Below are positions 2,173 to 21,966 of a stretch of 45,791 bases of DNA, piece by piece (within the stretch, counting starts at the first letter, position 1; each line of letters opens with the position of its first letter). The position numbers and the translations under genes were made by a program. Below the pieces are notes generated by a model. That model was not told the origin of the DNA. It searched no databases and was given only the letters and a program-made list of their open reading frames with translations. The DNA is from Beijerinckiaceae bacterium (GTDB taxonomy: Bacteria > Pseudomonadota > Alphaproteobacteria > Rhizobiales > Beijerinckiaceae). The DNA is taken from NCBI GenBank assembly GCA_964658355.1, contig CAZZZJ010000001.1:1-45791 (forward strand), read 5' to 3'.

Positions 2173-2190
2173 GTGGCGACCCCGCCTGGG
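2173..2190 (+). repeat. att site: 18-bp direct repeat GTGGCGACCCCGCCTGGG (copy of the tRNA-Arg 3' end)
   Basis: Identical to 21949-21966, which covers the last 17 nt of the tRNA plus one flanking base. Confidence 0.93.
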
Positions 2191-2748: not shown

Positions 2749-3048
2749 GGCGTTTCTCCCTGGTGTTGGCGTTAAGCACGCGATGACTAACCCAGGGTAG
2801 AAGTGCGACGTTCCGGCACAGCGAATGAAATCCAGGGGTCACCCGCGCGACACCCCATACCTGACAGGCAGCGGCAGGTTTTCCCCCCGTACCCCTCCGC
2901 CCGGCCTCCCTCGGGCGCGAGCGCGATGGCCCCCTCCCCCCGGCCTTATGTTACCCTCGCGCATCCGACACCCAGGCCCTCCGCCACTTCCGAGGCTCTG
3001 GCGCGTTACCCAGCCAAGAAGGCCACGGCGGCCCGCATGAGGTTAGCC

Positions 3049-3732: not shown

Positions 3733-3845
3733 TGTCCGAATGGGTATACCGTAGCGGACAGCACCGTGACTGTCCGAAAGGCCGTCCGTAAGGGTTGACA
3801 TGGCCCTACGGACAGTCAATCTTGCGGACAGTTCCCTTTCGGACA
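3733..3845. promoter_or_regulatory. res site of the serine resolvase
   Basis: TGTCCG/CGGACA half-sites at 3733, 3755, 3771, 3809, 3825 and 3840 (plus CGTCCG at 3783); the first pair is centred on palindrome GGTATACC (3743-3750); directly upstream of the resolvase. Confidence 0.75.
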
Positions 3846-3857
3846 GGCGCCGCTTCC

Positions 3858-4490
3858 ATGCAGACCATCCTCTACGCCCGGGTCTCGACCACCGATCAGA
3901 CTATCGCCCATCAGTGCACCCAGGCCGAGGCCGCCGGCTTCAAGGTAGACGAGGTGGTAGCGGATGAAGGGGTGTCAGGCCTCACCACCAGCCTCAAGGA
4001 TCGCCCACAGGGCCGCCGCTTGTTCGACATGCTCCGCCGCGGAGATACCCTCGTGGTCCGTTGGGTGGACCGCCTGGGCCGGAACTACGCGGACGTGTGC
4101 GACACCATCCGAGAGCTGATGCGGAGGGGCGTCATCGTCCGCACCGTGATCAACAACCTCACCTTCGACGGGGCCACCAAGGACCCGATGCAGCAAGCCG
4201 TGCGGGATGCGCTCATCGGCTTCATGGCCGCCACGGCGCAAGCCCAGGCGGAGGCGACCAAGGAAGCGCAGAGGGCCGGCATAGACCACGCCAGGGGTCG
4301 CGAGGACGCCTACCGGGGCCGCAAGCCCAGCTTCACCCGGGAACAGTTCGACGCCGTGAGCGGGGCTCTGGGCCAGGGCCAGGGGGTGAGCAGCATCGCG
4401 GCGACCACCGGGCTCACACGGCAGACCATCTATCGCATCAGGGAGAACCCGGCGGAGGCGGAGGCGGCCTTGGCGCGGTGGTCGGCCTGA
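3858..4490 (+). CDS. Serine recombinase (resolvase/invertase family) with C-terminal HTH
   Basis: YARVSTTDQ, DEGVSG, RPQG, GDTLVVRWVDRLGRN, YRGRKP, GLTRQTIYRI. Confidence 0.95.
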   Translation: MQTILYARVSTTDQTIAHQCTQAEAAGFKVDEVVADEGVSGLTTSLKDRPQGRRLFDMLRRGDTLVVRWVDRLGRNYADVCDTIRELMRRGVIVRTVINNLTFDGATKDPMQQAVRDALIGFMAATAQAQAEATKEAQRAGIDHARGREDAYRGRKPSFTREQFDAVSGALGQGQGVSSIAATTGLTRQTIYRIRENPAEAEAALARWSA

Positions 4491-5140: not shown

Positions 5141-5464
5141 CGGGCTAGCCGCGTGGTGAGTCGCCTTGCGCCCAAGCCCAGTGCTAGCCGTGGTGCTATG
5201 CCGAGAGCGAGCTTGACCGGCTACGGCGACCTCCGGGCTCAGTCCTCCCTGCCTACCTCCCCCCCTTCACCGCCGCATCATACCCAGCGACCCACTGCGC
5301 GTGCGCCTGGGTGCCTTCCGCATAAGGACAGGCGTCCCGACTGATCCCTTTGGCCGGGGCGTAGTAGCCCAGGGCGTGGTGGTCGAGGTCTTCGTCTGGC
5401 GGCTCTCTCATGGCGAGGAACGTAGGGTGCCGCGGGGATGCTCCAAGCTGTGGCCCAGGGCGCC

Positions 5465-5698
5465 CTACTTGGTGGGCGGCTTGAGGGTGTCTTCGGGCTT
5501 GTCCGGCGCAGCAGTTTCCCGGCGCTCCAGCTCTGCCACGGTGGCCTCGCGGATGAACTCGGCGCGGCGATGCTTGCCGGCGACCACATCGATACGCTCG
5601 GGGACGCCCTCGGGGAGCCGCACGAGCGTGGGCTTCACTCCGAGCAGGGGTCGGCCGCCACGCCGGGGCTTCGGGGTCTCACCACCGCCATCAGTCAT
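5465..5698 (-). CDS. Ribbon-helix-helix (CopG/Arc-like) repressor
   Basis: GRP followed by strand TLVRLP, helix VPERIDVVA and helix RRAEFIREATVAELERRE; divergent from the early operon. Confidence 0.8.
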   Translation of the reverse strand: MTDGGGETPKPRRGGRPLLGVKPTLVRLPEGVPERIDVVAGKHRRAEFIREATVAELERRETAAPDKPEDTLKPPTK

Positions 5699-5713: not shown

Positions 5714-5748
5714 CCGTTATCGGTATTGACCATCAATCCGTTATCGGT
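5714..5748. promoter_or_regulatory. Tandem operator repeats CCGTTATCGGT flanking a TTGACC -35-like hexamer
   Basis: Exact 11-bp repeat at 5714-5724 and 5738-5748 in the divergent intergenic region; TTGACC at 5726-5731. Confidence 0.65.
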
Positions 5749-5827: not shown

Positions 5828-6616
5828 ATGCTACGCGAAGCCACCTCGGCGTCGAGCGATGACGCACGCCTGGACCTCACCGACATCGAGTCCGTGCCCG
5901 ATGACGCGAACCTCGGGGCAGAACTCCGCGGTGCCCCGCCCGAGGTCCGCTTGGCTGCCGTGAGGCGGTCGCGGCGCATCCCCGAGCCCAGCACCATGCG
6001 GGCGGCTTGGGCAAGCCTGCCGCTGGACGTACGGGACCGGATCGGGGTCATGGCGCTCACCGAGTCGTTCTATTCGTTCACCGCGGACAGAGACCCGCAG
6101 GCCGTAACGCTGGAGGCCGCGCGGCGCTGTGGGCAGTGGCATTGCGAGGCCCTCAACGGCATCACCACGGCAGCAAGTGCGGCTCTGCCGGAGCTGTACG
6201 GCACCCATGAGGCCGAGCCCCTGTGGGCCCAGCGAGACGGCGTGGCGGTGGTCTTCTCAGCCAAGCCAGCCCCGGCCGACCCGACGCCCATGCGCCTCGC
6301 CATCGAGGCCCACCGCCGTGCGCTCGATAAGCTTCGGGCCAACAGCCCCTACAAGGGCGGCAACCCGGACGATGCGTGGCTCGCATTGGATGACGCAGAG
6401 AGCCAGACGTTCGATGCGCTGCTTGCGGCTCCCTGTGCCAACCCGGCGGACGCGGAGGCCCTCATCGCCCACCTGCGGCCCCTGGTCGGGGAGGAGCAGC
6501 GCCACCCGATCCTCAACGACATGGGCGATGTGGCGTGCGGGGTTCTTGCGCAAGTGCTGGACGTGTTCTCTGCGGTGCTTACGGGTGATGCCGTGGCCGC
6601 CGGGCGCCTCGCGTGA
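5828..6616 (+). CDS. Hypothetical early protein of the element
   Basis: GGAG RBS, normal composition, GTGA overlap with the next gene. Confidence 0.75.
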   Translation: MLREATSASSDDARLDLTDIESVPDDANLGAELRGAPPEVRLAAVRRSRRIPEPSTMRAAWASLPLDVRDRIGVMALTESFYSFTADRDPQAVTLEAARRCGQWHCEALNGITTAASAALPELYGTHEAEPLWAQRDGVAVVFSAKPAPADPTPMRLAIEAHRRALDKLRANSPYKGGNPDDAWLALDDAESQTFDALLAAPCANPADAEALIAHLRPLVGEEQRHPILNDMGDVACGVLAQVLDVFSAVLTGDAVAAGRLA

Positions 6617-7233
6617 GCCCGCACCCGGCCACCGAGAGTACCGCCACCCTCATCCGCGAGTGGGTCGCCATGGTGGACCGTGCGGCCGGCCCGAAGCCTA
6701 TGGCGCTGCCCTACCTCGCCGCTGGCGACCCGGAGGTCCTGGCCCGCATCACCCTACGCACGCTCCACGAGGGCATCCTCGCGGACAGCATGGGACTGGC
6801 CCGGCTGGCCCTCATCGTCGGGGCCACCGCGGAGCACGAGGCGGGCGACAGTGACCGTGGGCAGGGTTGGGGGACGGAGGCCCAGGTGCGGGTGGGTCTC
6901 GCCCTCATCGGCTGTGCCATGCGGGCCACCGGGTGGTTCTCCCTCGCGCACGCTCCCGACGGCGACGCACGGGTGGCCATGGCCTTGAGCCCGCGACTGG
7001 CCCTGTCTGTGCCGCCGGGCGCCATGGATGCGGCCTGTCACTGCCTCGGGACCGAGGCGCCTAATGCGGAGAGCTGGCGGCCGACCGTGCGGGCCCTCGC
7101 GCCGCCGTTCGGGGTCATCAGGACGTTCATGGGCGGGCGGAGCGTGACGGTGGCGCTGGCGGAGGCGGTCGATGCGGATTTGCCTGGGGGCGGCATCGAG
7201 CTGGGCCGTGCGGCGGCGCTGTGGCGGGCCTAG
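6613..7233 (+). CDS. Stand-alone N-terminal domain of a T7-type single-subunit RNA polymerase (RPOL_N-like)
   Basis: Colinear similarity to the T7 RNAP N-domain as recalled: IREW..VDRAAGPKPMALPYL..DPEVLARITLRT, LALIVGATAEHEA, WGTEAQVRVGLALIGCAMRATGWFSL; no polymerase core follows. Confidence 0.7.
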   Translation: MSPHPATESTATLIREWVAMVDRAAGPKPMALPYLAAGDPEVLARITLRTLHEGILADSMGLARLALIVGATAEHEAGDSDRGQGWGTEAQVRVGLALIGCAMRATGWFSLAHAPDGDARVAMALSPRLALSVPPGAMDAACHCLGTEAPNAESWRPTVRALAPPFGVIRTFMGGRSVTVALAEAVDADLPGGGIELGRAAALWRA

Positions 7234-7270: not shown

Positions 7271-7633
7271 ATGACTCCGCAGGCCCCTGCGGCCCTCCTG
7301 GCGGCTTTCGGTGACCGCCTCACCATCTCCGCCCCCGAGCTGTGCCGGCTCTTGCCTCTCGATGACGACACGCTCCGAGGGCACATCAAGCGCGGCCACA
7401 TCGAGTACGTCCAGACGGGGCTCGGGGAGAGGTCTCCGCGCAAGGCGTTCACTCTCGCGGCGGTCCTGCGGTTCCTCGAAGAGCGGAGCGTGCGCGAATG
7501 CCCGCCAGAGCCACGGCTTAGAGCGAGTTCTCCGCGGCGAGCCTCAGATTATGAATGCGGCGGCATCCTGGCTCGCTGTGCACGGCGGCAAGCAGATAAG
7601 CAACGGCTGAGAGATCAGGCGCGGAAAGGCTGA
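7271..7633 (+). CDS. Excisionase/MerR-like helix-turn-helix DNA-binding protein
   Basis: ISAPELCRLLPLDDDTLRGHIKRGHIEYV..G....RKAFT..AVLRFLE winged-HTH pattern. Confidence 0.75.
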   Translation: MTPQAPAALLAAFGDRLTISAPELCRLLPLDDDTLRGHIKRGHIEYVQTGLGERSPRKAFTLAAVLRFLEERSVRECPPEPRLRASSPRRASDYECGGILARCARRQADKQRLRDQARKG

Positions 7634-7777
7634 GCGGAAGCCTGCTTTGGGGCAGCGCCCGAATTGGGCAGCGATATGAGAGGGGCAGCCGGCCTCCAGG
7701 TGTTGAGGGCTTCTGTACGGGCTGCCGACCGGCGGCTCCGGGGACAAGCGGGCGGCTGGCCTGCGGGTGACCAAGCG

Positions 7778-8039
7778 GTGACCGACGCTCACGCGCTCAG
7801 TGCCCTCGCGCAGGACTGGCGGCAGGTCTCGGTGATCCTATTCTGCGTGCTTACCGTGGTGCTCTTCATCGAGGGCTGGTGACCTGAGCCTCGCGCAGCT
7901 CGTGGTCCTGTGGCTGGCCCTCATGGTGCTCGCGGCGGTGGCCTTCGCTCCGGGAGACCCCCTCATCGTCCTGCAACACCGTGTGCCGGCCGAGATGCAC
8001 CCGGAGTGGCCGCAAGGGGCTAAAAGCCGGGCTCAATGA
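7778..8039 (+). pseudogene. Small two-TM membrane protein split by a 1-nt frameshift near 7871-7876
   Basis: GTG 7778 frame gives TM1 (VSVILFCVLTVVLFI) and stops at 7882; the +1 frame continues AGDLSLAQLVVLWLALMVLAAVAFA to TGA 8039 with no start codon upstream of that hydrophobic segment. Confidence 0.4.
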
Positions 8040-8059
8040 AATCAATGGGTTAGCTAGGG

Positions 8060-8081
8060 TAATAGGCAGCGTATATGAGGG
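8060..8081 (+). promoter_or_regulatory. Putative phage single-subunit RNAP promoter (copy 1) TAATAGGCAGCGTATATGAGGG
   Basis: 16/22 identical to 8511-8532; layout resembles T7/SP6 promoters (TAATA...TATA..purine-rich start). Confidence 0.45.
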
Positions 8082-8510
8082 ACCCCCAAGCCTGCCATTA
8101 GGCATGCCTTGGTGTGGTTACCCTTCACCCCTCCCACACCCAAGGGGACTTCCCCAGCCCGCCCGGAGGGTATGGGTAGAGGAGTGGTCTACCCCTCACT
8201 CCCACCTTCTCATGGCCCCTGCCTCTACCCTCAATGTCTGTAGGATCAGGTTCCTTTCCGGGGCACCCCAAGTCCCCTGATGCCCACCCCAAGACCAGCG
8301 GCGGCGGTAGTAGGCAATAGGAGACCACGAGCCGACCCAAGGCCCACCCCTGGGTCGCCATCAGGTCAGCCTAACGGCAACTGGTAGGGCTGCCTCGCTT
8401 TCAAGAGGCGCCGTTACGGATGCTGCGCTAGGCGAGAATGGCGCTTAGAATTCACTAGTCGAATCAGCAGTTTAAGGATTACGCGACATTCTGTCACCCC
8501 GGAAACGGCT

Positions 8511-8533
8511 TAGTACCCACCGTATATGAAGAG
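8511..8533 (+). promoter_or_regulatory. Putative phage single-subunit RNAP promoter (copy 2) TAGTACCCACCGTATATGAAGAG
   Basis: Shares the CGTATATGA core with copy 1; lies just upstream of the late-type gene run. Confidence 0.5.
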
Positions 8534-8567: not shown

Positions 8568-9446
8568 TTGTGCCTACTGAGGCCCGCGCGAGAGATCACA
8601 TCGGTTGGGGGCAACTTGAACACGACCATTCCGAAGACACCCACCGAAGTCCGCAGCGAGCGGTCCAAGGCTGCCCTGGCGAAGAGCGAGCGGATGAAGG
8701 CCGGGGCGGCCCGCCGCGCCGAGGACCGTACCAAGGCCGCCGAGATGCGACGGCGCCAAGTCAGCAGGAGGTTTGACCCGCCGACCCCCGAAGCCATCCT
8801 TGGGTGTGCTGGCTTCTACGATGCGTGGGTCTCTCACCTATCCCAGGGCACGGAGCTGCCTATCGGGACCTTGCTGCTTCTTGTCGGGCGCTGTTCTCAC
8901 GGTCCGGTCTTCGACGCCCATAGCGTTCCGCCGCCGGTTCCAACATGGTCGGGCAGCTATGCCATCAGCTTTCAGATGGTCGGCCGGGAGGAGCAGGGGC
9001 GCTACATCGACCCATTCGGCTTCCTAGTCCTCCGCGTCCTGACACTGTTCGTAGACGAGATGCCCGCCCTCTCGGGGAAGACTGTCGCGGGCCGCCCCGA
9101 GCACCTGCCGATCCTAGCCGAAGGGTTCACGCTCGGCCGCCTCTTGGTCAACGCCGATGCTGACGAGGATGTACGGCTTCACCCCTCCAGCGGCCGGCTA
9201 GACCTCGGGCCCTGGGCACTGGAGCGCGTCCCGGGCCGCCCTTGGGCCAACCGGGAGCGACATCACGCCATCGAGCGGGCCTTGAAGTTCTACACGAAGA
9301 ACGCCCGCCGCTGGAGCCTGGAAAGCACCATCACCGCTCGACAGTACGAAGACCTCATCAAGGGTGTCTTCCGTCTCTACGATGCGGTGAACGCCAAGCA
9401 CCTAATGCGGCCCATCGGGCTGGTTGGCGAAGCTGCCGAGGACTAA
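8568..9446 (+). CDS. Hypothetical protein, degenerate HNH-like; paralog of 9699-10394
   Basis: Shared blocks TLGRL..NA, AIERAL.F, IT...L....FRL.DA; true start may be TTG 8616. Confidence 0.75.
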   Translation: MCLLRPAREITSVGGNLNTTIPKTPTEVRSERSKAALAKSERMKAGAARRAEDRTKAAEMRRRQVSRRFDPPTPEAILGCAGFYDAWVSHLSQGTELPIGTLLLLVGRCSHGPVFDAHSVPPPVPTWSGSYAISFQMVGREEQGRYIDPFGFLVLRVLTLFVDEMPALSGKTVAGRPEHLPILAEGFTLGRLLVNADADEDVRLHPSSGRLDLGPWALERVPGRPWANRERHHAIERALKFYTKNARRWSLESTITARQYEDLIKGVFRLYDAVNAKHLMRPIGLVGEAAED

Positions 9447-9698: not shown

Positions 9699-10394
9699 AT
9701 GGCCGATACCTCCGCCACGACTCGCCAGCATCGCCCCCGCTACCTCCCGATGAGCCCCGAGGCCTGGGAGGCCCGCACCACCTACTTGAGGCTTGCCCTC
9801 GCCCAGCTCAAAGACCCCTCCGCCCCCTATCCAGACATCAAACTCCTCACGGTCGGACCTCATGGCCCCTTCACGGCCACCTGGGCGGCCCCGGCCTCGG
9901 ACGGTGGGGGTCTCTCTGTCCACTTCACGGTGAAGAACCCGGAGCGGGGCCCGCGGTGGTGCCCGCCCGAGGTCTTCCTGATGCTCGACCTCCTGCTTGC
10001 TTTCGGAGGTGGGGCCTCGGTGAACGACAACGGCCGGGGCTGGGCCTACGTCCGCCCTTGGAGCGGGAACTACCGGCACACCCTCGGGCGGCTCGTCGCT
10101 AACGCAGGGCTCGGTGACGTGGTGAGGCAGGACAAGCGGGCCGACCATCACGCCCAGCACCCGCAGCATTTCCGGGTGACATCGGGCTCCCCCAGGGCAG
10201 AGCATTCCCAGGGCACCCCGAGGCGGAGCCGCCAGGACGCCATCGAGCGGGCCTTGCACTTCTGGGACTGCAACCACCCCCGATCCGCCATCGCGATCAC
10301 CCGGGATGAGTTCGCCACTCTCCTCCGGGACAGCTTCCGCTTGGTGGACGCCTACTATGCCGAGGACCCAGCCACCGCCGACAAGGCGGCCTGA
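9699..10394 (+). CDS. Hypothetical protein, degenerate HNH-like; paralog of 8568-9446
   Basis: NGRGWAYVR...HTLGRLVANAGLGDVVRQ resembles the phage HNH N-half but lacks the D-H catalytic pair; AAGGA RBS. Confidence 0.78.
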   Translation: MADTSATTRQHRPRYLPMSPEAWEARTTYLRLALAQLKDPSAPYPDIKLLTVGPHGPFTATWAAPASDGGGLSVHFTVKNPERGPRWCPPEVFLMLDLLLAFGGGASVNDNGRGWAYVRPWSGNYRHTLGRLVANAGLGDVVRQDKRADHHAQHPQHFRVTSGSPRAEHSQGTPRRSRQDAIERALHFWDCNHPRSAIAITRDEFATLLRDSFRLVDAYYAEDPATADKAA

Positions 10395-10672: not shown

Positions 10673-13600
10673 ATGCCAAGAGCACCCTACAGACCCGTCG
10701 AGGAAACCGAGGCCCTCCGCCCGGTAGCCTCACCCGTTGACACGTTCGTCACCCCCCAGGCCCCTTCCCGCGGCACCTCCCTCCAGGACCTAGCCCGCTC
10801 CCTCTCCTGTCTCGGAGGCAACCTCGGGTCCTTCGTTGAGAAGCGGGACAAGGACGCGGAGGAGGCCGACCGTCTCCGGGGCAAGGCCGCCTTCTGGCAG
10901 TCCAACGGTACGGGCGCGGCCGAGGGGGTCTCCAAGGGTCTCATCCCTGCCCAGGCCTCCCCCCAGTTCATGAAGGGCTACAAGGAGACCGAAGGTGAGG
11001 TCGCCGGGGGGCAGCTCGAACAGAAGTTCGCGGCGGCCTACGACACCTGGGAAGGCAAGACCTCGACGGACCCCAAGGCCTACGACCAGTTCATCAGCGG
11101 GTTCCTCAAAGACAACATCCAGACCAAGGACCCGGATGTGCTTCGAGGTCTTATCCCCAAGGTCCACCAGATAGCTTCGAACTACCTCCAGAGGCACATC
11201 GGGGATGCCTCGAAGGCCACCATGCAGGGCTACACCACCGTCCTCTCGGCCCGGGGTGACCAAGCCATCCAGGATGCCAACACCACCGGCCTCGCCACCC
11301 GGAAGGGCACCGACTACGTGGGGGTCTTCGGCAGGCTCGATGCCATCCGCGAGGAAGGCCTCAAGACCGGGGCCACCCGGGAGCAGCTCGATGAAAAGCT
11401 CATCGACACCATCACCAGCAATGCGGTGACCCAGAGGGACCCTAAGCTCCTCGACTTCCTGGACCGCAAGGTCCCCGGGCAGGACTACACTTGGGGCAAC
11501 ACCCCCTATGGCCGGGACGCCCGCCAGAAGACCATCGACACCCTGGAGACCATGGGCCGGAAGTCCATTGCGGACGACGAGAAGAAGCGGCGGGAGGAAA
11601 AGACCGAGGCGAAGGATACCGTCACTCGGGAGACCATCCAGGCGATCACCAAGGCCCCCAACGAGCCGATCCCCGAGGACCTTCTGGCCAGGGGGGAGAA
11701 GGTGGACCCCGACTTCCGGGTCAACGCCATTCGGTGGCGCGACACCATCGGCAAGGGCACCCAGACCTCCGACAACGGGGAGATGCTCGCGGTCACCACC
11801 GACATCCTCAACGGGGGTGGTCTCCGGCGCGTGCAACGGGCCATCTCGGACGGGGTTTTCAAGAACCCCGAAGACCTCACCCGGGCGTACAAGCTCGCGG
11901 AGAGCATGAAGGAACACGGGCCGGCAATCACCGCCGTCTTCTCCTCAGACCAGTCCAAGGCCATCGAGCGGACCATTCGGGAGCGGACCCTTACCCAGAA
12001 CAACTTGGAAGCCGTCATGGACCCGGACGGCATGTCGGATACCGGGTTGGCGGCCAAGCGGGACTACAGGCTGGCCCTGCTGACGTGGCGGCAGGCCAAC
12101 CCCGATGCCGACTTCATCGCCCAAGAGAAGGCCATCGGGGAGATTGGTGCGTCCATTCTCAAGCGCATCACCCTCAGCGACACGGGTGGCGGCACCTACA
12201 GCCGGGAGGGGCTACCCGAAGACAACCCCTTCGTCCGGGCGCCCACCCCCGAGGCGCCCACGGTGGCGGGCTCGAAGGTCACCCCTAAGCCCAACCCCTT
12301 CGGCGGTCGCGATGCACCCCAGGCGCCAGGTGCGCCCCAGGCCGGCACGGTCTCGCCCCCGGGACCCCAGGCGCCGGCTCCGGCAGTCCCCGCTGCTCCC
12401 CGGACGCAGGCCACCCCGGAGCAGGCGGGCGCATGGTTCAACGGCCTCCCGGCGGAGACCCGAGGGGCCATCGAGATGAAGGCGGCCCAGGAGAAGAAGC
12501 CCCTCACCCTCAAGATGCAGGAGCTTTACGCGAGGGGTGTCGAGCGGGGCATCATCGCGCCGCCCGCCGCTCCGGCACCCACGGGAGCCACCGGCAAGCG
12601 GTCCGACCTCAGGGCCCCGGACGGAACGCCCATCGAGACCGCCAGCGCCACGGTGGGCCCGACCGAGGCCGTCGATTTCCAGAAGGCGTTTGCCGGGGCC
12701 TTCGCCGGCAAGGCCACCTTCGACGGCACCACAGCCACGCTCAACAACCGGACCTTCTCCCAGCCCACGAGTGCCGAGGCGGTCGCTCGCCAATTCACCG
12801 GGCTGGACGAGAACGACCCCCAGGGCCGGGCGGTGCTCACGGCGTTCCTCTCGAAGTCCGCCGGCAAGACCATCGACCCCGCCAAGATACCCTGGTGCGC
12901 CGCCTTCGTGGACAGCGTGCTCGATGCCTCGGGCCACGCCACCCGGGGGTCCCTCATGGCGAAGGACTTCCTCGACTACGGCACGGCGGTGGACAACCCA
13001 ACCCGGGGCGACGTGGTGGTCTTCAAGTCCCTGGCCCGCGGGTCCTCGGGGCATGTTGGCTTCGTGGTCGGCATCGAGGGCGACCACGTCCGGTACTTTG
13101 CGGGCAACGACAACGGCAAGGCCCAAGAGAGCACCCTCCCGCTGGACAAGGTGGCGGGCTTCCGCAGGCCGCCCGAAGCCGGCGGGGCGACGCTCGGGGG
13201 GCAGACCGCACAGAACATCCAGGAGGCCTTCAAGGAGGCCCTGGCCAACGCGGGGGCACCTCAGGGGAACTACGCGTCAGCGGACCTGAAAGCCGACCCC
13301 CGGGCCGCCCGCATCCTCGACTTCGTGGCGGGGCCGGAAAGCAAGGGGAACTACAATGCCTTCTTCGGTAACGCGGATAGCACCAAGGACCTTTCCGGCA
13401 TGACGCTGGACCAAGTGATGGCATGGTCCGGGGACCGGGGAACCAAGTCCTCCGCAACCGGTCGATACCAGTTCATGAGGGAGACCCTCGCAGGCTTAAA
13501 GACCGAGCTGGGTCTCACCGGCACGGAGCGGTTCACACCCGCTTTGCAAGATCGCCTCGCCCTCTCTCTTCTGGAGCGCCGGGGCTACCGAGACTTCGCG

Positions 13601-14248
13601 GCTGGCAAGATTACTCCCGACCAGTTCGCCAACAACCTCGCCAAGGAATGGGCCGCCCTGCCGAACATGCAGACGGGCCGGAGCCAATACGCCGGGGACG
13701 GTCTCAACAAGTCCCTCGTGACTCCCGACGCGGTCCGCAATGCCCTCACGGGGAGCGGAGCGTTCCCCGGGGCCGCTCTCAAGGAAGCCGCCAAGACCGT
13801 CACCGCGGCCACCATCTCGAAGGCAGGCGGCCTCACGGATCGGCTTCGAGGCATGTTCGGGGGTGGCAGCCCGAAGCCGGCACCGGACGCCTACGCCAAT
13901 GCGCCCGATGCCCCGACCCAAGCCCGGCTTCGCGCATCCAACCCGGACCCGGTGGGCAACAGTGAGCAAGTCCTCGGCACCCTCGCGCCGGTGCTCGCGG
14001 CTGCCATCAGGAAGGCCCAGGCGGACAACCCCAAGCTCCGCATCGTGGTCGCGTCCAGAAGCGGAGAGGGGGCGGAGGTCTGGCCCGTGGACGCCAACGG
14101 ACGGGTCTCCTTCGAGCCGGGGCATCAGGATGCCGTGGCCGCTGCCATCCGCCGTTCCGCGGTTCAACTCGGCGCTGGGGTGAACGTGGGCGGCGGCACG
14201 GGAGGAGGCCGCACGCACTTCGAGCTGGCGGCGACCACCCCAGTCTGA
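10673..14248 (+). CDS. Internal virion (ejection) protein, T7 gp15-like N-region, with NlpC/P60, lysozyme-like and degenerate M15 peptidase domains
   Basis: N-terminus LRPVASPVDTFV.P...LQDLARSL; PWCAAFV...GDVVVF...GHVGF (TIGR02594/NlpC-P60); PESKGNYN...SSATGRYQF...FTPALQD...LAKEWAALP (lambda-R/COG4678-type muramidase); C-terminal HFEL. Confidence 0.8.
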   Translation: MPRAPYRPVEETEALRPVASPVDTFVTPQAPSRGTSLQDLARSLSCLGGNLGSFVEKRDKDAEEADRLRGKAAFWQSNGTGAAEGVSKGLIPAQASPQFMKGYKETEGEVAGGQLEQKFAAAYDTWEGKTSTDPKAYDQFISGFLKDNIQTKDPDVLRGLIPKVHQIASNYLQRHIGDASKATMQGYTTVLSARGDQAIQDANTTGLATRKGTDYVGVFGRLDAIREEGLKTGATREQLDEKLIDTITSNAVTQRDPKLLDFLDRKVPGQDYTWGNTPYGRDARQKTIDTLETMGRKSIADDEKKRREEKTEAKDTVTRETIQAITKAPNEPIPEDLLARGEKVDPDFRVNAIRWRDTIGKGTQTSDNGEMLAVTTDILNGGGLRRVQRAISDGVFKNPEDLTRAYKLAESMKEHGPAITAVFSSDQSKAIERTIRERTLTQNNLEAVMDPDGMSDTGLAAKRDYRLALLTWRQANPDADFIAQEKAIGEIGASILKRITLSDTGGGTYSREGLPEDNPFVRAPTPEAPTVAGSKVTPKPNPFGGRDAPQAPGAPQAGTVSPPGPQAPAPAVPAAPRTQATPEQAGAWFNGLPAETRGAIEMKAAQEKKPLTLKMQELYARGVERGIIAPPAAPAPTGATGKRSDLRAPDGTPIETASATVGPTEAVDFQKAFAGAFAGKATFDGTTATLNNRTFSQPTSAEAVARQFTGLDENDPQGRAVLTAFLSKSAGKTIDPAKIPWCAAFVDSVLDASGHATRGSLMAKDFLDYGTAVDNPTRGDVVVFKSLARGSSGHVGFVVGIEGDHVRYFAGNDNGKAQESTLPLDKVAGFRRPPEAGGATLGGQTAQNIQEAFKEALANAGAPQGNYASADLKADPRAARILDFVAGPESKGNYNAFFGNADSTKDLSGMTLDQVMAWSGDRGTKSSATGRYQFMRETLAGLKTELGLTGTERFTPALQDRLALSLLERRGYRDFAAGKITPDQFANNLAKEWAALPNMQTGRSQYAGDGLNKSLVTPDAVRNALTGSGAFPGAALKEAAKTVTAATISKAGGLTDRLRGMFGGGSPKPAPDAYANAPDAPTQARLRASNPDPVGNSEQVLGTLAPVLAAAIRKAQADNPKLRIVVASRSGEGAEVWPVDANGRVSFEPGHQDAVAAAIRRSAVQLGAGVNVGGGTGGGRTHFELAATTPV

Positions 14249-14268
14249 GCCGAAAGGAGTGTAGCACC

Positions 14269-14544
14269 ATGTCGAGCAAGACCCCCGGCACCACCTCTCC
14301 CGAGGACCACGACGCCCCGGGGCCTCAGGAGGACGTGGCGGCCGACATCCGGCACCTCTTCGAGGAAGCCCACGCGGCTGGTCTGGGGTCCGACCCCGAG
14401 GCCCTACCGGAGCTGCCCCCGGAGGCCAGCGTGTCGCCCCCCGCGGACCCGCCGGCCTGCATGATGGTGGACGCGGTCGAACGGTACGTGGACGCCTTGG
14501 AGGAATGGGCGGAGCACCTCCGGCAAGGCAACCGGACCCATTAG
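14269..14544 (+). CDS. Small acidic hypothetical protein
   Basis: Strong AAGGAG RBS; sits between the two large virion-protein genes. Confidence 0.6.
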   Translation: MSSKTPGTTSPEDHDAPGPQEDVAADIRHLFEEAHAAGLGSDPEALPELPPEASVSPPADPPACMMVDAVERYVDALEEWAEHLRQGNRTH

Positions 14545-14653: not shown

Positions 14654-17600
14654 ATGCCTGGAGCCACCCCCACGATGACCTTGGACGAACTCGAAGCCCT
14701 CGACACGCCCACCCCGCCGACCCAGGCGCCGGCCCAACCCCGCGCTCTCTCGCCGGCTGACATCGAGGCCCTGGACGCCTCGCCCCCGCCCGGGGCCGCC
14801 ACGGCACCCCCGAGCGGCGGCACCGGCATGACACCGGACCAGTTCCGAGACCTGATGGGGGAGGGAGCGTCCGCCGAGCCCACCCCCGAGACCATCGGAC
14901 CGCATGGCCTGGACGCCCCGGCCGACACCGCGGCCCGCTATGACGCCTCCGGGCAGATCGGCGGGGCCATCGTGACGGGTGCCGCCAAGTCGATCTATCA
15001 GACCTCGGACTTTTTGTTCGGCAAGCCGGAGGAGGCGAACAAGACCGAGACCCGGCGCAGCGTCGAGGCGCTGGACAAGTCCCTCGGGGAAAGCAGCATC
15101 GCCAACTCCTTCGTCTCCGGCCTCTCCCAGTTCGCGGTGGGTATGCTCGGAGCCGGCAAGGTGGTCTCGGCCGCGAAGCTCCTCCCGGTGGCCGGTGCCG
15201 CCATCACCGGAGCGGAGGCGACCCGGCGCGGCGCCATGTTGCTGTCCACCGGCAAGGCGGCGGCGGTGGGCGCGGTGGCGTTCGATCCCAACGGCCCCCG
15301 GCTGTCGGACCTCGTGCTGCTCAAGGGCCCCTCGTGGCTCCAGACTCCTGTCACCGCCTACCTCGCCCACACCGGCAACGAGGACGACACCCCGGCCCTC
15401 GGGCGCATGAAGAACGCCCTGGAGTCCATCGGCGTGGACGCGGCCATGGCGGGGGTCTTCGCCCTCAGCGTGAAGGGCTACGCCAAGGTCCAGGCCTACC
15501 GCGCCAGCAACGCCACGGCGGAGGAGGTGCATGCCGCCACCGAGGAACTTGCCCAGGCGGTGGCGCATAAGGACGCCAAGCTGGCGGCCAGCAAGGGCGA
15601 CACCGAGACCCTGGCTGCCCTCCGCGAGACCCACCCCGAGGCGACCGCCCAGGCCGAGGCCAGCCTCCTTCCGGCCCGTCCCGAGGCGGCGGGCACCGAG
15701 GTGACCACGAGGGCGGACGGCACGGCGGAGGTGACGCTGCCCGAGCTGCGCACCGAGACCCCTGCGGCCGAGACCACCGGCATGGCCACGCGGCCAGCTC
15801 CGCTCTTGGAGGTCTCCGATGAGCAGGTCTCCCGCCTGATCCAGCACGGAGAGGCCGACACCGCGGCGCTGATGGGCCCCGGCGGTTGGGAGGGTGCCCT
15901 GGAGCGGGGCTACACGTTCGGGGACGGTGGCCGCATCCCCTGGCAGAAGTTCGCGCTGGAGGCGGAGCACGCCCCCGGCACCTCGCCCCTGGATCAGGTC
16001 ATCCGCCGGGTCTCCGATGAGTTCGCCGGGGAGATTGCCGCCGGGAAGGTAGGCGACGGGCCGACAGGCGTGCGGTCGGACGCGATGCAGGACCGGATGA
16101 TCGCCCAGCGCGTCGCGCTCTACGGGGACGACCCGGCGGAGCTGATGGGCGCCCTCCAGCTCGCCGGCCGGAACGCCGATGGCATGGTGGCGGACGTGGC
16201 GGCGGCCGACCTCATTACCCTCCGGGCGGCCACCGACGCGGCCAACCTCGCGGACCGCATCAAGCTCGGGACGCTGGAGGAGTACGGCGGGGACCTCTCG
16301 GCCGCCATGACGGCCCTCCGGGGCCACTATCAGGTGGCGGCCACGGCGCGGGCTCAAGGCGCGGCCATCGTGGCCAACGCGGCGCGGACCCTGCGGCGGC
16401 AGCGGGCGGACTTCGCGTACAGCCTGGAGGACGTGGCCGCGATGGGCCGGCTGTCCGATGCCAAGATGCTCAACCTCATCGAGGCGGCCGGGCGGGACCC
16501 GAGGGTGGCGGACAGGCTCCTCCGGCGGGGCTTCTGGTCGAGGCTCCAGGACGACGCGAGCTACCTCTACGTCAACAACCTCCTCTGGGGATTGCGGACC
16601 CACTTCGTGAACTTCACCACCAACTCCTACATGCTCGCGGGGCGGCCCCTGGAGCGGATGATTGGAGGGGCGTTGCAGGGTGACCGGGCGCTGGTAGCGG
16701 AGAACGCCCGCCAATACGCCTACTTCGCCACCTCCCTTCACGAGTCCTGGCGCGATGCTGTCCGCACCTGGACTACAGGGGAGAGCATCCTCGCCCCGCA
16801 CACTGCCGAGCTAAACGCGGCCACCGCCGGCCGGTCCACCAACTGGGTGGCGGAAGGGTTCAAGCCGGCGGACGCGGTGCCGAGCATCCTGAGCAACGCC
16901 TACACCGGCTTCATGAAGGCCGCCGGGTTGCCCACCCGGGCACTCGGTGCCGTCGATGAGCTGGTCAAGCAAGTGGTCTACCGCTCGAAGGTCCAGGCGG
17001 CGGCCCATGCGGATGGCATCGTGCAAGGCCTGGAGGGACCGGCGCTCACCGAGCACGTCCGCCGGACGCTGGACAAGGCGTTCGATGATGCGGGCCGCGC
17101 GGTGGACTTGAAGGCCCTGGAGGAGGCGAACGTCGCCACCTTCCAGCAAGACCTCCTTCCGGGGACGGTAGGCTCATGGGTCCAGGGCGGGACCAACACC
17201 ATCGGGGCGCTGCGCTTCGTGGTCCCGTTCGTGAAGACCCCGACCAACGTCTTGCGGATGGGCTGGAAGCTGACTCCGGGCCTCAACCTGTTGCAGGGCG
17301 AGTACCGCAGGATGCTCCGGGGCGAGATGGGCGCGGAGAAGCAGGCCCAGGCGGTGGGACAGTTCGCAATGGGCTCGCTCTTCATGGGCACTGCGGCCGT
17401 CTTAACCCATGCCGGTCACGTTACCGGCGGCGGCCCGATGAACTCGGAGCTGCGCAAGAACCTGATGGCCACCGGGTGGCAGCCGTACTCCTTCGTGATC
17501 CCCGGCGAGGACGGAGCGCCGACCTACGTGAACTTCGGGCGCTACGATCCCATCGCCATGCCCTTCGGGATCATCGCGGATGTGGTCGATATCCTGGAGC

Positions 17601-18460
17601 GGGACCAGGACGGCGATGGGCCGGGGGAAAAGGCGGTGGCGGCCTTGGGCGGGGTCTTCCTCTCCCTGGTCAAGCAGCTCGGCCAGAAGACCTACCTCTC
17701 GTCCCTCAACGACACCCTCTCGGCCATCACCAGCCCGGAGAAGGGTGGTCTGTCGAAGATGGCCGGGGGCATGGCGTCGAACTTCGTGCCCTTCGCCTCG
17801 GGCCTGCGCTTCGTGAACCCGGACCCGAACATGCGGGAGACCCGGAGCATCGTGGACAAGATCATGGCCACCGTGCCGGGCCTGAGCGAGACGCTGCCAG
17901 CGAAGCGCGACCTCTTCGGAGACCCGATGACGGTCCACAAGGGGCTCTGGGTCCACGGCAAGGATGGGCTGGTGGATGCCGAGGTGCGCCGCATGGTGGA
18001 CGAGGCGGAGGTGGGACCGTTCGGGGCGCCCAGCTCGACGTTCCGCGGGGTGGACCTCCGGGACGTGACGACGAAGGACGGGCGAAATGCCTTCGAGGTC
18101 TACCAGGAGCTAGCCGGCCACCCGCCCCGCAGCCCGAGCTTGAAGGAGATGGTGGGCCGGCTGATCGCCACGGGGGCGTACCAGAGAGCGCCGGACAGGG
18201 ACCCCGAGGTGGACAACCAGAAGGGCACCAAGCAGGCGATGCTTACGGGGACGGTCCACAAGTACCGGGACGCGGCGGGCAAGCGACTGATGGCGGACCC
18301 GGTGGTGCGCGAGGCGGTCTTTAGGCAAGCCGTGAGGGGCCGTGCGGTGGGGGTGGCTAAGGCGGCACCGAAGACGGACCAGCAGGCGGGCGCCGGGACC
18401 ATCGCGCAGGTGGGCCGTGCGTTCGGGGTGGACTTGAGCGGGATGGTGCCGGAACAGTAG
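14654..18460 (+). CDS. Large internal virion (ejection) protein, T7 gp16-like, with LPD38-like C-terminal region
   Basis: 1268 aa, helical, Gly/Ala-rich hydrophobic segments near the N-terminus; VPFVKTPTN and GWQPYSF...YVNFGRYDPIAMPFGIIAD motifs typical of podovirus internal proteins. Confidence 0.78.
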   Translation: MPGATPTMTLDELEALDTPTPPTQAPAQPRALSPADIEALDASPPPGAATAPPSGGTGMTPDQFRDLMGEGASAEPTPETIGPHGLDAPADTAARYDASGQIGGAIVTGAAKSIYQTSDFLFGKPEEANKTETRRSVEALDKSLGESSIANSFVSGLSQFAVGMLGAGKVVSAAKLLPVAGAAITGAEATRRGAMLLSTGKAAAVGAVAFDPNGPRLSDLVLLKGPSWLQTPVTAYLAHTGNEDDTPALGRMKNALESIGVDAAMAGVFALSVKGYAKVQAYRASNATAEEVHAATEELAQAVAHKDAKLAASKGDTETLAALRETHPEATAQAEASLLPARPEAAGTEVTTRADGTAEVTLPELRTETPAAETTGMATRPAPLLEVSDEQVSRLIQHGEADTAALMGPGGWEGALERGYTFGDGGRIPWQKFALEAEHAPGTSPLDQVIRRVSDEFAGEIAAGKVGDGPTGVRSDAMQDRMIAQRVALYGDDPAELMGALQLAGRNADGMVADVAAADLITLRAATDAANLADRIKLGTLEEYGGDLSAAMTALRGHYQVAATARAQGAAIVANAARTLRRQRADFAYSLEDVAAMGRLSDAKMLNLIEAAGRDPRVADRLLRRGFWSRLQDDASYLYVNNLLWGLRTHFVNFTTNSYMLAGRPLERMIGGALQGDRALVAENARQYAYFATSLHESWRDAVRTWTTGESILAPHTAELNAATAGRSTNWVAEGFKPADAVPSILSNAYTGFMKAAGLPTRALGAVDELVKQVVYRSKVQAAAHADGIVQGLEGPALTEHVRRTLDKAFDDAGRAVDLKALEEANVATFQQDLLPGTVGSWVQGGTNTIGALRFVVPFVKTPTNVLRMGWKLTPGLNLLQGEYRRMLRGEMGAEKQAQAVGQFAMGSLFMGTAAVLTHAGHVTGGGPMNSELRKNLMATGWQPYSFVIPGEDGAPTYVNFGRYDPIAMPFGIIADVVDILERDQDGDGPGEKAVAALGGVFLSLVKQLGQKTYLSSLNDTLSAITSPEKGGLSKMAGGMASNFVPFASGLRFVNPDPNMRETRSIVDKIMATVPGLSETLPAKRDLFGDPMTVHKGLWVHGKDGLVDAEVRRMVDEAEVGPFGAPSSTFRGVDLRDVTTKDGRNAFEVYQELAGHPPRSPSLKEMVGRLIATGAYQRAPDRDPEVDNQKGTKQAMLTGTVHKYRDAAGKRLMADPVVREAVFRQAVRGRAVGVAKAAPKTDQQAGAGTIAQVGRAFGVDLSGMVPEQ

Positions 18461-19353: not shown

Positions 19354-20082
19354 CTACAATGGGCGAAGCCCGCTCTCATCAGCACGCCCACTCCGAGGGG
19401 ACGTGCTTTGCACCATCATCCTGGCCGAGACGATGGCGTCATTCAATATCGACGCCAATTCCTGGAATGTCAGGCTGTAGGCTCGCGTGTTCTTCCGGCT
19501 CATCAGCCCGGTGTTCGTAATCCAGATTGGGGCAAGGGGTAGCGGCCTGGACTCGTTCTTAGAGAACCCCATGATGTCATCGTGATAGTGACGGATGCGG
19601 TTGCCGAGCTTGTTGAGGCGATCATAGGGTGAATCGTCGTTCTCGACGTAAATGGTAGGCGCGTCAGAGATTGTTCGTGTGATTGCAACGAGACAGGCTT
19701 GAGCGGCACTTGCTTGTAATAGGCAGCCTTCAAAGCGGGCTACAGCAATTGCGTGGATGCTGGTCGCCGTCGAGTCCGGGAGTAGCGCGAGGTACTCACG
19801 TATTGCGTGGCATCCATCTCGATACTCGGCATTCGCAATGACCGAGCGTCGTAGAAAGTTTGAGACTAAAACTCGGATACGGCCGTAGCCGTCGAAATAG
19901 TCAGGGTGATGCAGCGCGTTCATGCTTGTGAAGGCGACATAGTAATCCGGCATGGCCGGCACGTTGGGCGCCAGACACTCACTTAGCTCGGACAGGTGCG
20001 GCGCGAAAAAAGTATCGAGCGCATCGGGTGACCAGCGCTCGCACATCCCGTTAGTCCACGCCACGTCCGTCTCATTCGCCAT
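19354..20082 (-). CDS. Hypothetical protein, HEPN-like
   Basis: AVARFEGCL ... RLNKLGNRIRHYHDDI; start overlaps the integrase 3' end by 11 nt; more AT-rich. Confidence 0.65.
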   Translation of the reverse strand: MANETDVAWTNGMCERWSPDALDTFFAPHLSELSECLAPNVPAMPDYYVAFTSMNALHHPDYFDGYGRIRVLVSNFLRRSVIANAEYRDGCHAIREYLALLPDSTATSIHAIAVARFEGCLLQASAAQACLVAITRTISDAPTIYVENDDSPYDRLNKLGNRIRHYHDDIMGFSKNESRPLPLAPIWITNTGLMSRKNTRAYSLTFQELASILNDAIVSARMMVQSTSPRSGRADESGLRPL

Positions 20083-21859
20083 GACGGCTCATCTCCCACC
20101 TCAGACCCCTCACCGCCTCGGGCACCTCGATCCTGGCCAGCTCCTCCGCCATCGCCGGCAGCGCGAAGCCACTCCCGTAGGTCCGCCCGACTCCGCCGCC
20201 CCCGGAGTGCCCGGTGAGGGCATCGTGCATCTCTTCCATGATGCGGGCACTCCGAGCCAACCGCTTGAAGGTATGCCGGAAGCTGTGGAAGACCTTCGTG
20301 CTGTCCTTGATGCCTGCCTTTACGCGGAGGTGGCGGTTGAACCACTTGGACCACGCGGCGACCGGCTGGGCCGCCTTATCGTTCTGGAGGCCCGGCCACA
20401 GCGGATCATTCGGCTTGGCCCCGGCATCCACGAGGCTCTGGCGGTAGCGGAGGAGACCGATGCTCTCCAGCGCCGGATGCAGCGGGACCTTACGGCGGGA
20501 CGACGCCGTCTTGATGGACCTCCCCTCGCCCGGCTTGATGTCGAGGTGCCAGACGCCCGAGTCGTCGTCTCGCACGAGGTCGGCCACGCGGAGCTGCGCG
20601 AGTTCGCCTTGGCGGCCCCCCGTGAGCAGTGCGAGGACCGGGAGCCAGAACGCCGCCTCCCCTCCCCCGCCTCCGGGCCTGTCGCCCGAAGTGAAGACCC
20701 CCGTGCCGAAGATGCTGGTGAGGTCGGCCGTGGTGAAGCCCTGCCTCGCCTCCTCCGCTCTGTCGTCCAGGTCCAGCCGCGTGCCCTTACCGAAGGGGTT
20801 GCGGAAGCCCGGCACGGCGTCGAGCTTCCCGGCTGCCTCGGTGTGGCTGACGATGGCGGCGAGGATGTTGCGGTGCTTGTTGATCGTTGAGGCGTGCGGC
20901 AGCGCGTAGCCCTTGAGGTCCCGCTTGAGCAGCTCCCGCAGCGACAGGGCCCGAAGCTTCTCCGGGAGATGAGTCGGCATGCTCGCGAGCGCGTCCCGGA
21001 ACTCCCGCGCCATCTCCCGCGTGAGGTCCCCGATGCGGATGTCACCGTGCCACTCCGTCAACCGGCGCACCGCACGGTCGGCTTCGAGAACCGTCTTGGC
21101 CGCCGGCTTCTTAGACCCCCTCGCCCCGCTCCCCGCCTTCCACGCCGCGTAGGCCTCGGAGAACTTCGGCCCCCGGTTGGCGCTCGGTGCTGGCGTGCGC
21201 ACGATGTCACCGCGCTGCCTGTCGAGCATGAGGGCGTACCCGCGGACGTGGGCACGGAGGACCGCCATGCCGGCCTCGTGGTAGGCCTCGGAGGTCGGAT
21301 CGATCGGTGCATTCTTCCGCCGGAGGTAATCACGGGTCTCCCGGTCCACTGCGTTTGGGTCGGACCGGGCCAAGGCAGCTCGGTACTCCGCATGCTGCTC
21401 TTCCAGCTCCAACCCGAGGGCGTACGCGTAGTCCTCTCCGATCCCGCGGCGGCCTTGAGGCACACCTAAGAGGTCCGGCAGTTGCGCACGCTCCTCCGCC
21501 GACTGGAGGTGCCGGCGCGAGTCGCCATCAGTGCGTTGGGCCTCATCGTCTTTGAGCAGCCCGATGAGCACGTCGCGCTCAATTTCCTCGACGCTTGGCA
21601 GGGTGTGAGCTCGCGGTACTGCCGCCGGAGGTTCGCCCCGCTGGGCACGCTCGGCTGCCTCGAAGTCCGCCATACAATCCCGGAGCTTTCGGGCGCCCGC
21701 TCTCTTCGCTTCGGCGGGGAGCTTGGTCCTGAGGCTGACCTTCCAGTTCGTCTTTCCGGTCCACGGGGCGGGCATGAAGGGCCTGAGGCCAGCCGGGATG
21801 GCGCGGCGAAAGTAGTAGGTGCCGTGCGGGTCCCGGAGGAGATAAGACATCAGCGCCAT
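20072..21859 (-). CDS. Tyrosine integrase with DUF6538-like N-terminus
   Basis: GTYYFRRAIP..LR N-domain; catalytic TGGRQGE, IKT, FHSFRH, LTGH, RTY; next to the tRNA 3' end. Confidence 0.95.
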   Translation of the reverse strand: MALMSYLLRDPHGTYYFRRAIPAGLRPFMPAPWTGKTNWKVSLRTKLPAEAKRAGARKLRDCMADFEAAERAQRGEPPAAVPRAHTLPSVEEIERDVLIGLLKDDEAQRTDGDSRRHLQSAEERAQLPDLLGVPQGRRGIGEDYAYALGLELEEQHAEYRAALARSDPNAVDRETRDYLRRKNAPIDPTSEAYHEAGMAVLRAHVRGYALMLDRQRGDIVRTPAPSANRGPKFSEAYAAWKAGSGARGSKKPAAKTVLEADRAVRRLTEWHGDIRIGDLTREMAREFRDALASMPTHLPEKLRALSLRELLKRDLKGYALPHASTINKHRNILAAIVSHTEAAGKLDAVPGFRNPFGKGTRLDLDDRAEEARQGFTTADLTSIFGTGVFTSGDRPGGGGGEAAFWLPVLALLTGGRQGELAQLRVADLVRDDDSGVWHLDIKPGEGRSIKTASSRRKVPLHPALESIGLLRYRQSLVDAGAKPNDPLWPGLQNDKAAQPVAAWSKWFNRHLRVKAGIKDSTKVFHSFRHTFKRLARSARIMEEMHDALTGHSGGGGVGRTYGSGFALPAMAEELARIEVPEAVRGLRWEMSRHGE

Positions 21860-21948
21860 GGCCCGTTGCACTACCGGATTGTATGACCGGAGGCTGCTAA
21901 GGCACTGATATCGGCAGAGTTTTAGGCTTTTCAAGGCCTTAAGAGAAG

Positions 21949-21966
21949 GTGGCGACCCCGCCTGGG
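21949..21966 (+). repeat. att site (tRNA-proximal copy of the 18-bp repeat)
   Basis: Identical to 2173-2190. Confidence 0.93.

Follow-up and report, generated by a model that had tools for sequence, protein, structure and literature searches.

The gene under study lies in a window of 45,791 nt, by which we mean the whole stretch of DNA that was analysed, and encodes a 206-residue protein that we call the mini-protein. It sits in a 19.8-kb island, integrated in tRNA-Arg and bounded by an 18-bp repeat, whose borders and genes are the following:

2173..2190, no strand: left attachment repeat, 18 bp, a copy of the tRNA-Arg 3′ end (from the repeat and from contigs passing from 2190 straight into the tRNA)
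3795..4490, + strand: serine resolvase/invertase (profile matches)
5465..5698, − strand: small gene with a weak match (E 0.062) to Arc-like ribbon-helix-helix proteins, oriented away from the mini-protein operon
5714..5747, no strand: 10-bp motif present twice between the divergent genes, a candidate operator common to the sister islands G109 and G135
5828..6616, + strand: 262-aa gene, family unassigned, coupled to the mini-protein gene
6613..7233, + strand: RNA polymerase-derived mini-protein, 206 aa, a promoter-binding domain without subdomain H plus a probable specificity loop, with no catalytic core
7271..7633, + strand: excisionase-like HTH gene (xis), 63-66% identical over about 75 residues to the pre-integrase gene of prophages G003 and G038
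8568..9446, + strand: gene without assigned family, with homologs in sister islands; paralog (28%) of the 9699..10394 gene
9699..10394, + strand: gene without assigned family, paralog of the 8568..9446 gene
10673..14248, + strand: gp15-position ejection (internal virion) protein with CHAP and lysozyme-like domains (profile matches)
14654..18460, + strand: gp16-position internal virion protein (profile match)
20072..21934, − strand: tyrosine integrase with DUF6538 (profile matches)
21949..21966, no strand: right attachment repeat, inside tRNA-Arg(TCT) 21950-22026

The operon opposite the Arc-like gene consists of the 262-aa gene, the mini-protein gene and xis. Among 145 genomes of the genus the gp15-position gene was matched in 8, at nine places, namely the prophages G003 and G038 and seven islands; two of these seven islands belong to the source genome. 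G003 and G038 are complete temperate T7-like prophages, with RNA polymerase (RNAP), SSB, endonuclease, amidase, integrase, portal, capsid and terminase genes, and they are the closest source of the xis gene, the ejection genes (54-61% identity over the first 590-660 residues of the gp15-position gene) and the promoter region of the island. The host element is an integrated island related to these temperate T7-like prophages, and probably a phage satellite. A PHROG scan and the gene calls revealed no capsid, portal or terminase gene among its 19 ORFs, and no polymerase; the polymerase-like gene of the sister islands is also missing from it. PICI-type satellites have their own primase-replicase module, whereas no ORF of the island matched one. 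Read depth was flat, and neither a circle joint nor an attP joint was present in four contig sets. Contigs of the empty site, running from 2190 straight into the tRNA, were observed and may stem from related strains. The named records that match a sister-island gene are from Methylobacterium.

The frame at 6613-7233 on the + strand is open for 206 codons, and its GTG start overlaps the TGA of the upstream 262-aa gene (GTGA), so the coupling described in the initial annotation is borne out by the ORF coordinates; the 262-aa gene itself was matched in 36 of the 145 genomes. The GC3 of the mini-protein gene (0.89) is a coding signal equal to that of the neighbouring genes, and the codon score of its frame is 0.17, the remaining five frames scoring between −0.09 and −0.75. 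One contig from run X1 covers the whole gene and one from run X2 covers it up to position 7192, both with zero differences, the two runs possibly being the assembly's own source. Since both contigs agree across them, the internal gaps of the mini-protein are unlikely to be an assembly error.

The initial annotation had read the protein as a stand-alone N-terminal, promoter-binding domain of T7 RNAP and had named comparisons with the RPOL_N profile and with predicted structures as the way to check it. The mini-protein does derive from a T7-type RNAP. Using phmmer against 1.84 billion representatives we obtained 12 proteins at E < 0.001, that is, the mini-protein itself and 11 others (best E 2e-12); nine of the 11 were RNAPs of the T7 type, seven with lengths of 881-949 aa and the others partial at 525 and 479 aa, and two were short proteins, all 11 being RNAP or RNAP-derived. 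The Pfam RPOL_N profile (PF14700) matched at E 0.062 and 13.1 bits without reaching its gathering score of 30.1 bits. When four short proteins were compared with an RNAP alignment by HHalign, the probability was 99.6, residues 5-175 being paired with T7 73-285 and a 46-column gap falling at subdomain H. PHROG 414 matched at E 2e-4. T7 RNAP chains matched at E 0.5 over residues 13-77 (T7 84-149) and 84-115 (T7 202-233), in which the two N-domain stretches picked out earlier by eye were seen again. Single-sequence library scores for the mini-protein were weak, yet all pointed toward T7-type RNAP. An AlphaFold model (mean pLDDT 67.9, pTM 0.70) put T7 RNAP on top in both Foldseek and VIA searches; the VIA comparison with 3e2e gave Z 18.1 and an rmsd of 2.5 Å over 151 aligned residues, and the best structural match other than RNAP reached a Z of only 6.1. 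Neither NCBIfam nor PADLOC models matched the ORF, and ESM Atlas held no usable match for the mini-protein or its relative P0018.

The mini-protein is not an RNA polymerase. Thumb, fingers and the palm with its two catalytic aspartates gave no profile match in the ORF or in the window, and a profile of 19 full-length RNAPs, run over the six frames of the window, detected no further RNAP piece, in agreement with the earlier statement that the element encodes no catalytic core. We numbered T7 residues according to the GenBank record and took the domain limits from PMC11617373, which places the C-helix of T7 RNAP at 28-71, the promoter-binding domain (PBD) at 72-150 and 191-267 and the specificity loop at 739-770, and which lists as promoter contacts the AT-rich loop (93-101), the intercalating loop (232-242) and the specificity loop. 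On this basis the mini-protein is divided as follows:

6625..6843, + strand: first PBD part, residues 5-77, corresponding to T7 about 73-149, with the AT-rich recognition loop at residues about 17-30
6844..6867, + strand: short linker replacing subdomain H (T7 about 150-200), from the sequence alignment
6868..7089, + strand: second PBD part, residues 86-159, corresponding to T7 about 201-272, with the intercalating hairpin and C-linker
7114..7164, + strand: predicted beta-hairpin, residues 168-184, matching the specificity loop at T7 746-763 (sequence and model)

The protein starts at the promoter-binding domain and lacks the C-helix. The deletion of subdomain H proposed at the outset is confirmed, there being 9 residues between E76 and W86 where T7 has 52; in T7 RNAP this subdomain serves the RNA exit channel during elongation (PMC11617373). 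Together with subdomain H the mini-protein has lost the thumb, palm and fingers.

The last folded element had been taken for more of the N-domain, and here our reading departs from the earlier one. The structural alignment of the model ends at residue 184, equivalent to T7 763 and thus within the specificity loop, and the register of the loop obtained from the structure is the same as that obtained from the sequence. We scanned the tail by glocal profile against 423 windows taken from 18 full-length RNAPs, and T7 747-764 came first (z 5.7), a maximum equalled by 3 of 300 shuffles; when the tails of the mini-protein, P0009 and P0018 were combined, z rose to 6.7 and none of 5000 shuffled triples scored as high. 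The mean local score of the tail against 19 RNAP loop segments gave z 5.0 (0 of 200 shuffles), as opposed to z 0.0-0.2 against the collinear segment T7 273-330. The model aligns through residues 181-184 (T7 760-763) in 1cez, 3e2e, 3e3j and 1aro, which are a promoter complex (1cez), two initiation intermediates and a lysozyme complex, whereas for each of the ten listed entries of T7 elongation complexes the alignment stops at residue 155-156; the mitochondrial RNAP structures show the same split between initiation and elongation. In elongation complexes the promoter-binding domain is rotated away from the specificity loop. The AlphaFold input alignment contained no specificity-loop sequence from any full-length enzyme, although AlphaFold has seen T7 RNAP, which bears on the modelled placement of the loop, and the hairpin has a pLDDT of only 49-57. 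Other comparisons were less favourable: the HMMER loop match of the tail was weak (4 of 200 shuffles), HHalign did not find the loop match and aligned the tail region collinearly, and the P0018 model shows a low-confidence helix in place of the hairpin, aligning only to T7 254 with no superposition of the loop. The collinear HHalign alignment is aided by a PP-x8-GG spacing that is common to both readings. The sequence and a model of low confidence together strongly indicate that residues 168-184 represent the specificity loop in the position that it takes up in promoter-bound polymerase. Therefore, the stand-alone N-domain of the initial annotation stands as far as a PBD without H is concerned, and has to be amended in that a probable specificity loop is fused to it; on balance, the mini-protein is a PBD minus H plus the specificity loop, keeping all the promoter-contacting parts and none of those needed for RNA synthesis. 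We had also considered a tail that runs collinearly to the end of the N-domain, with a fragment on contig C30 of the source genome as its complement, and dropped it with the collinear scores at chance level.

Four short relatives, P0009 (232 aa), P0011 (193 aa), P0018 (202 aa) and P0019 (161 aa), are open frames that all carry the H deletion. The first three are 23-27% identical to the mini-protein, and P0019 is apparently truncated or frameshifted; homologs without H thus do not occur only as frameshifted remnants of full polymerase genes, one of the four looking broken. The tails of the relatives lean to the specificity loop as well (1 of 200 shuffles for P0011, 3 of 200 for P0018 and 6 of 200 for P0009), and for the P0009 tail there is in addition a collinear match to one RNAP, at 7 of 13 residues. 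In a PBD tree the short proteins fall among alphaproteobacterial-type T7-like RNAPs, with a p-AU of 0.40 that is compatible with one or several origins, and the branch of the mini-protein is long (2.11, against a median of 0.76). All four relatives are single metagenomic records and the cluster of the mini-protein is a singleton. A word-index search returned the mini-protein alone at near length and nothing at longer lengths, and an alignment search gave five proteins, two of them new. No second copy of the mini-protein was found in overlapping samples from the genus (145 genomes), the family (301) and the order (401), surveyed by a lossy first look. Of the seven matches in the genus search, one was the window itself, two were full-length enzymes, one was a different fragment and three were marginal; the family search yielded four matches, and the order search seven, one of which is a stop-truncated stump. 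The marginal matches in the genus were in G143, G021 and G107, and the last showed no RNAP match on inspection. Searches for the gene context of the short relatives confirmed none of 340 candidates in a metagenome scan, 0 of 6 and 0 of 3 in viral sets, and gave no match in plasmids; GenBank phages gave seven weak matches, all annotated as RNA polymerases. No natural fusion of a PBD with the loop was listed in searches of a largely open-access literature.

The mini-protein is not the only trimmed polymerase in these islands. PHROG 414 was matched in 8 of the 145 genomes: two full enzymes, one short scrap and five stand-alone palm frames, counts that are lower bounds because this search missed the mini-protein gene. 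The five frames, one of which is on contig C30 of the source genome, span the same palm segment; they keep the palm-insertion region and two palm strands, and lack the thumb, the fingers, both catalytic aspartates and all promoter-reading parts. Two pairs gave dN/dS values of 0.34 and 0.27, indicating purifying selection, and one cluster has six members of 263 aa each. In G109 and on C30 the palm-only gene follows a homolog of the 262-aa gene, that is, it occupies the slot of the mini-protein. From the palm-only frames and the mini-protein we conclude that trimming of RNAP to compact dead modules recurs in the island family, the palm type being under selection.

Downstream of the mini-protein operon we located candidate phage-type promoters and a captured phage scrap:

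7661..7683, + strand: weaker candidate for a T7-like promoter, sharing its GGCAGCG box with the 8060 site (score 14.0, within the background range)
7717..7782, + strand: scrap like the terminase 3′ end of prophage G038 (73% over 66 nt, E 0.002)
8060..8082, + strand: candidate T7-like promoter (motif); 8010-8081 resembles the post-terminase region of G003 (73% over 74 nt) and island G135
8511..8533, + strand: second candidate T7-like promoter with a different specificity box (motif)

The motifs at 8060 and 8511 have the layout of T7 promoters, with an AT-rich five, a variable box, a conserved CGTATAT and a purine-rich start. The same motif occurs 31-41 bp after the terminase gene in both complete prophages, which upholds, at the level of sequence, the earlier proposal that they are T7-like promoters, and it is found in arrays in islands G094 and G135. 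A generic pattern detected 3 sites in the 4-Mb genome, two of them being 8060 and 8511, and a stricter one was found in 5 of the 145 genomes, with 5 of its 7 sites in such islands; the promoter matrix was built from seed sites and is partly circular. G003 and G038 have one strong site each, G003 also a weaker one after its RNAP gene, and a plain repeat scan of these prophages showed no repeated promoter. Searched exactly in viral contigs, the two boxes were matched four times each and never in island or T7-like loci, so the cognate helper was not found among those contigs. Since paused T7 polymerase recruits the terminase (PMC3276506), the post-terminase region of the island may, by analogy, be a packaging signal.

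Bases are read in T7 RNAP by positions 746, 748, 756 and 758 (PMC11880802). At 746, 748, 756, 758 and 760 the mini-protein has V, R, S, T and A, where full-length relatives have mostly long polar residues, and its AT-rich loop has 2 basic residues, compared with 2-6 among 19 full-length enzymes. Given the V, R, S and T in the loop, the two basic residues of the AT-rich loop and a pI of 5.7, the predicted binding is weak or broad; just one long base-reading side chain is left, with which the mini-protein would have low affinity or accept a wide range of these promoters. The initial annotation had left a choice between a promoter-binding regulator, a competitor of the helper RNAP and a sponge for proteins that bind it, and the fusion of the loop to the PBD favours the promoter-binding option over the sponge. 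We tentatively read the mini-protein, from its sequence and model, as a domesticated, enzyme-dead promoter binder that would throttle helper-phage transcription or packaging, an interpretation that we hold to be quite possible though just short of probable. Its gene would be transcribed by the host RNAP, as the operon lies upstream of the phage-type promoters. The protein would then sit on helper promoters where these are duplex, from −17 to −5, chiefly on the promoter behind the terminase gene, and compete with the helper polymerase for them; alternatively, it may set a threshold on the island's own promoters. The mini-protein is rare and fast-evolving, and the islands also carry plain scraps of phage genes, both of which speak against a promoter binder. 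The wider proposal, of a minimal natural reader of T7 promoters and of a hitherto undescribed class of satellites in Alphaproteobacteria that splits the helper polymerase into tools, a palm-only decoy included, to control temperate T7-like phages, is one that we put forward with more reserve, as conceivable but doubtful.

Other explanations have to be weighed against this promoter-binder reading. Three cuts in frame at domain borders, joining parts that touch in space and lie about 470 residues apart, are not expected of a functionless remnant, whether left in frame by chance when an RNAP gene was deleted or decaying after an earlier domestication; nor is the recurrence of the H deletion in proteins of 23-27% identity, the full codon bias together with a start coupled to the upstream stop, or a model that is a compact folded domain (pTM 0.70). 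We consider a remnant unlikely, although the cluster is a singleton on a long branch, the gene is absent from five other ivpA-bearing islands whose matching region was seen, and at 71% GC stops are rare. Scraps are also common: G135 retains 23 residues of an RNAP C-terminus, G137 a short piece from the C-terminal end, G640 an N-terminal stump cut off by a stop, and the mini-protein island itself the terminase scrap. Broken versions are on record too, namely P0019 and a split gene in G138. It seems improbable, too, that the protein is a folded decoy blind to DNA, which would show the promoter-binding surface of RNAP and titrate or trigger proteins acting on the helper polymerase. A protein sponge needs no distant specificity loop grafted beside the domain, a strongly basic pI is seen in P0009 (10.5) and P0011 (11.1), and no PADLOC defence model was matched. 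On the other hand, the few basic and base-reading residues and the acidic pI of the mini-protein would suit a decoy, T7 RNAP interacts with lysozyme and terminase at the concatemer junction (PMC3276506), and the palm-only derivative has no promoter-reading parts, so that at least one island RNAP derivative would have to work without promoter reading. The candidate partners of such a decoy are the terminase, the amidase, a host or phage inhibitor and a defence sensor.

Two further roles keep the DNA binding and add a partner. The mini-protein might be an adaptor for packaging or replication that binds the captured post-terminase promoter and recruits the helper terminase, or opens the duplex, as a paused polymerase would. 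The location of the 8060 promoter within a captured copy of the phage post-terminase region, the recruitment of terminase by paused T7 polymerase (PMC3276506) and the retained intercalating hairpin are in line with this; islands G135, G047 and G094, however, have the same promoter region without the mini-protein gene, and no transcript is possible with which to reach the pause site, which makes such an adaptor very unlikely. That the protein could be the sigma-like specificity subunit of a split polymerase whose catalytic core acts in trans is suggested by the fact that T7 RNAP works when split into up to four fragments (PMC4299498) and by the palm-only derivative in a sister island of the same genome. 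Yet that derivative is devoid of thumb, fingers and both catalytic aspartates, and no other RNAP piece was found in the assembly (72% complete), and we regard a split polymerase as extremely unlikely.

Chen and Schneider reportedly described, in 2006, enterobacterial islands of tandem T7-like promoters with an integrase, terminal direct repeats and no working RNAP. The mini-protein island likewise has an integrase, direct repeats, several candidate T7-like promoters and no working RNAP, and differs in being alphaproteobacterial, in its size of 19.8 kb, and in carrying two ejection-protein genes and trimmed RNAP derivatives. The prophages G003 and G038 are of the same kind as the temperate T7-like phages Pasto, HTVC019P and LUZ100, for which control of lysogeny by a MarR-like regulator has been proposed (PMC10134795); no RNAP piece figures in that proposal, and the island, unlike such phages, has no capsid, portal, tail, terminase or replicative phage genes. 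Compared with the promoter unit of T7 RNAP, the mini-protein has the same PBD fold and order, the AT-rich loop, the intercalating hairpin and the loop register T7 746-763, but lacks the C-helix, H, thumb, palm and fingers, has the loop joined directly to the domain, and cannot make RNA. In the engineered split T7 RNAP specificity likewise resides on a detachable fragment, and null fragments act as negative regulators (PMC4299498); there, the sigma fragment comprises the 285 residues at the C-terminus and binds only together with the core, whereas the mini-protein is a natural single chain in which the loop is grafted on the N-terminal domain. A tested parallel is CapR of the Vibrio cholerae satellite PLE, a DNA binder of homing-endonuclease origin that tunes helper transcription (PMC8096241). 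Both are satellite proteins from an enzyme family of the helper phage that have lost the catalytic part, and we claim no homology between them; CapR comes from a homing endonuclease, the mini-protein from the helper's own type of RNA polymerase, and the role of the latter is predicted.

In our view the architecture, as read from sequence and model, is real and surprising, and the strategy would be a variant of a known one in a probable satellite. Were promoter binding true, a PBD and a specificity loop would suffice for recognition without the polymerase body, and competition by a dead promoter-reading copy would be a new form of satellite control over an RNAP-carrying phage. It would also be a compact scaffold on which to build repressors of T7-type promoters, with positions 748, 756 and 758 available for setting their specificity (PMC11880802). 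Even if the mini-protein is decaying, the recurrent trimmed RNAP derivatives point to an unstudied family of islands; these derivatives are often annotated plainly as RNA polymerase.

The genome that carries the window (G000) holds a second island of this family on another contig, C30, where its integrase is 60% and its ejection gene 57% identical to those of the window island. The following features lie on C30:

L015:90-12853, second island of the family
L015:9694-10371, palm-only RNA polymerase (RNAP) derivative
L015:6231-7610, 430-460-aa gene of PHROG 4756 (unknown)

The palm-only derivative also occurs in sister islands at L054, L057, L056, L055, L096 and L098. It lacks thumb, fingers and catalytic aspartates, and its dN/dS is 0.27-0.34; some copies are labelled DNA-directed RNA polymerase in databases. 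L098 encodes a longer palm-type form of 442 aa, and the same form is split in genome G138. The PHROG 4756 gene is found in most sister islands (also L054, L096 and L101) and is missing from the window island; inspected by eye, its motifs resemble a family A polymerase palm.

The C30 island has a single ejection gene. The window island retains both large ejection-protein genes (window 10673-18460), with a dN/dS of 0.31 against sister islands. One idea is that the ejection proteins of this capsid-less island would swap into helper virions.

The T7-like promoter motif has no match in the C30 island (L015:90-12853). Elsewhere in the genus we located the following:

L101:8760-8924 (G094) and L058:12745-12960 (G135), each a tandem array with roughly five T7-like promoters
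L058:10928-12400 (G135), phage scraps lined up as a patchwork
L012, L014 and L108 (G038) and L010, L106 and L107 (G003), one complete temperate T7-like prophage in each genome

Specificity boxes differ among the promoters of both arrays, which look as if gathered from several helper phages. The patchwork comprises an integrase remnant, the final 23 residues of RNAP plus its downstream promoter, a terminase end and the post-terminase promoter. In each prophage only one strong phage-type promoter was found, and amidase and primase-helicase flank xis and integrase; that of G003 carries a transposon pair downstream of the capsid gene.

Two further genes lie in the window island:

window 5253-5411, gene for 52 aa in the ribosome modulation factor/CrpP family, scoring above the cut-off of NCBIfam NF041886 and shared with the G109 and G069 islands
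window 5828-6616, two-domain gene

The latter had no family match in Pfam, PHROG, NCBIfam or PADLOC, and matches to it, often tandem copies, occur in 36 of the 145 genomes. A short stretch (window 2834-2898) recurs in the C30 island at 87% over 77 nt. The contigs of three runs diverge there, and the resolvase may use it as a recombination site.
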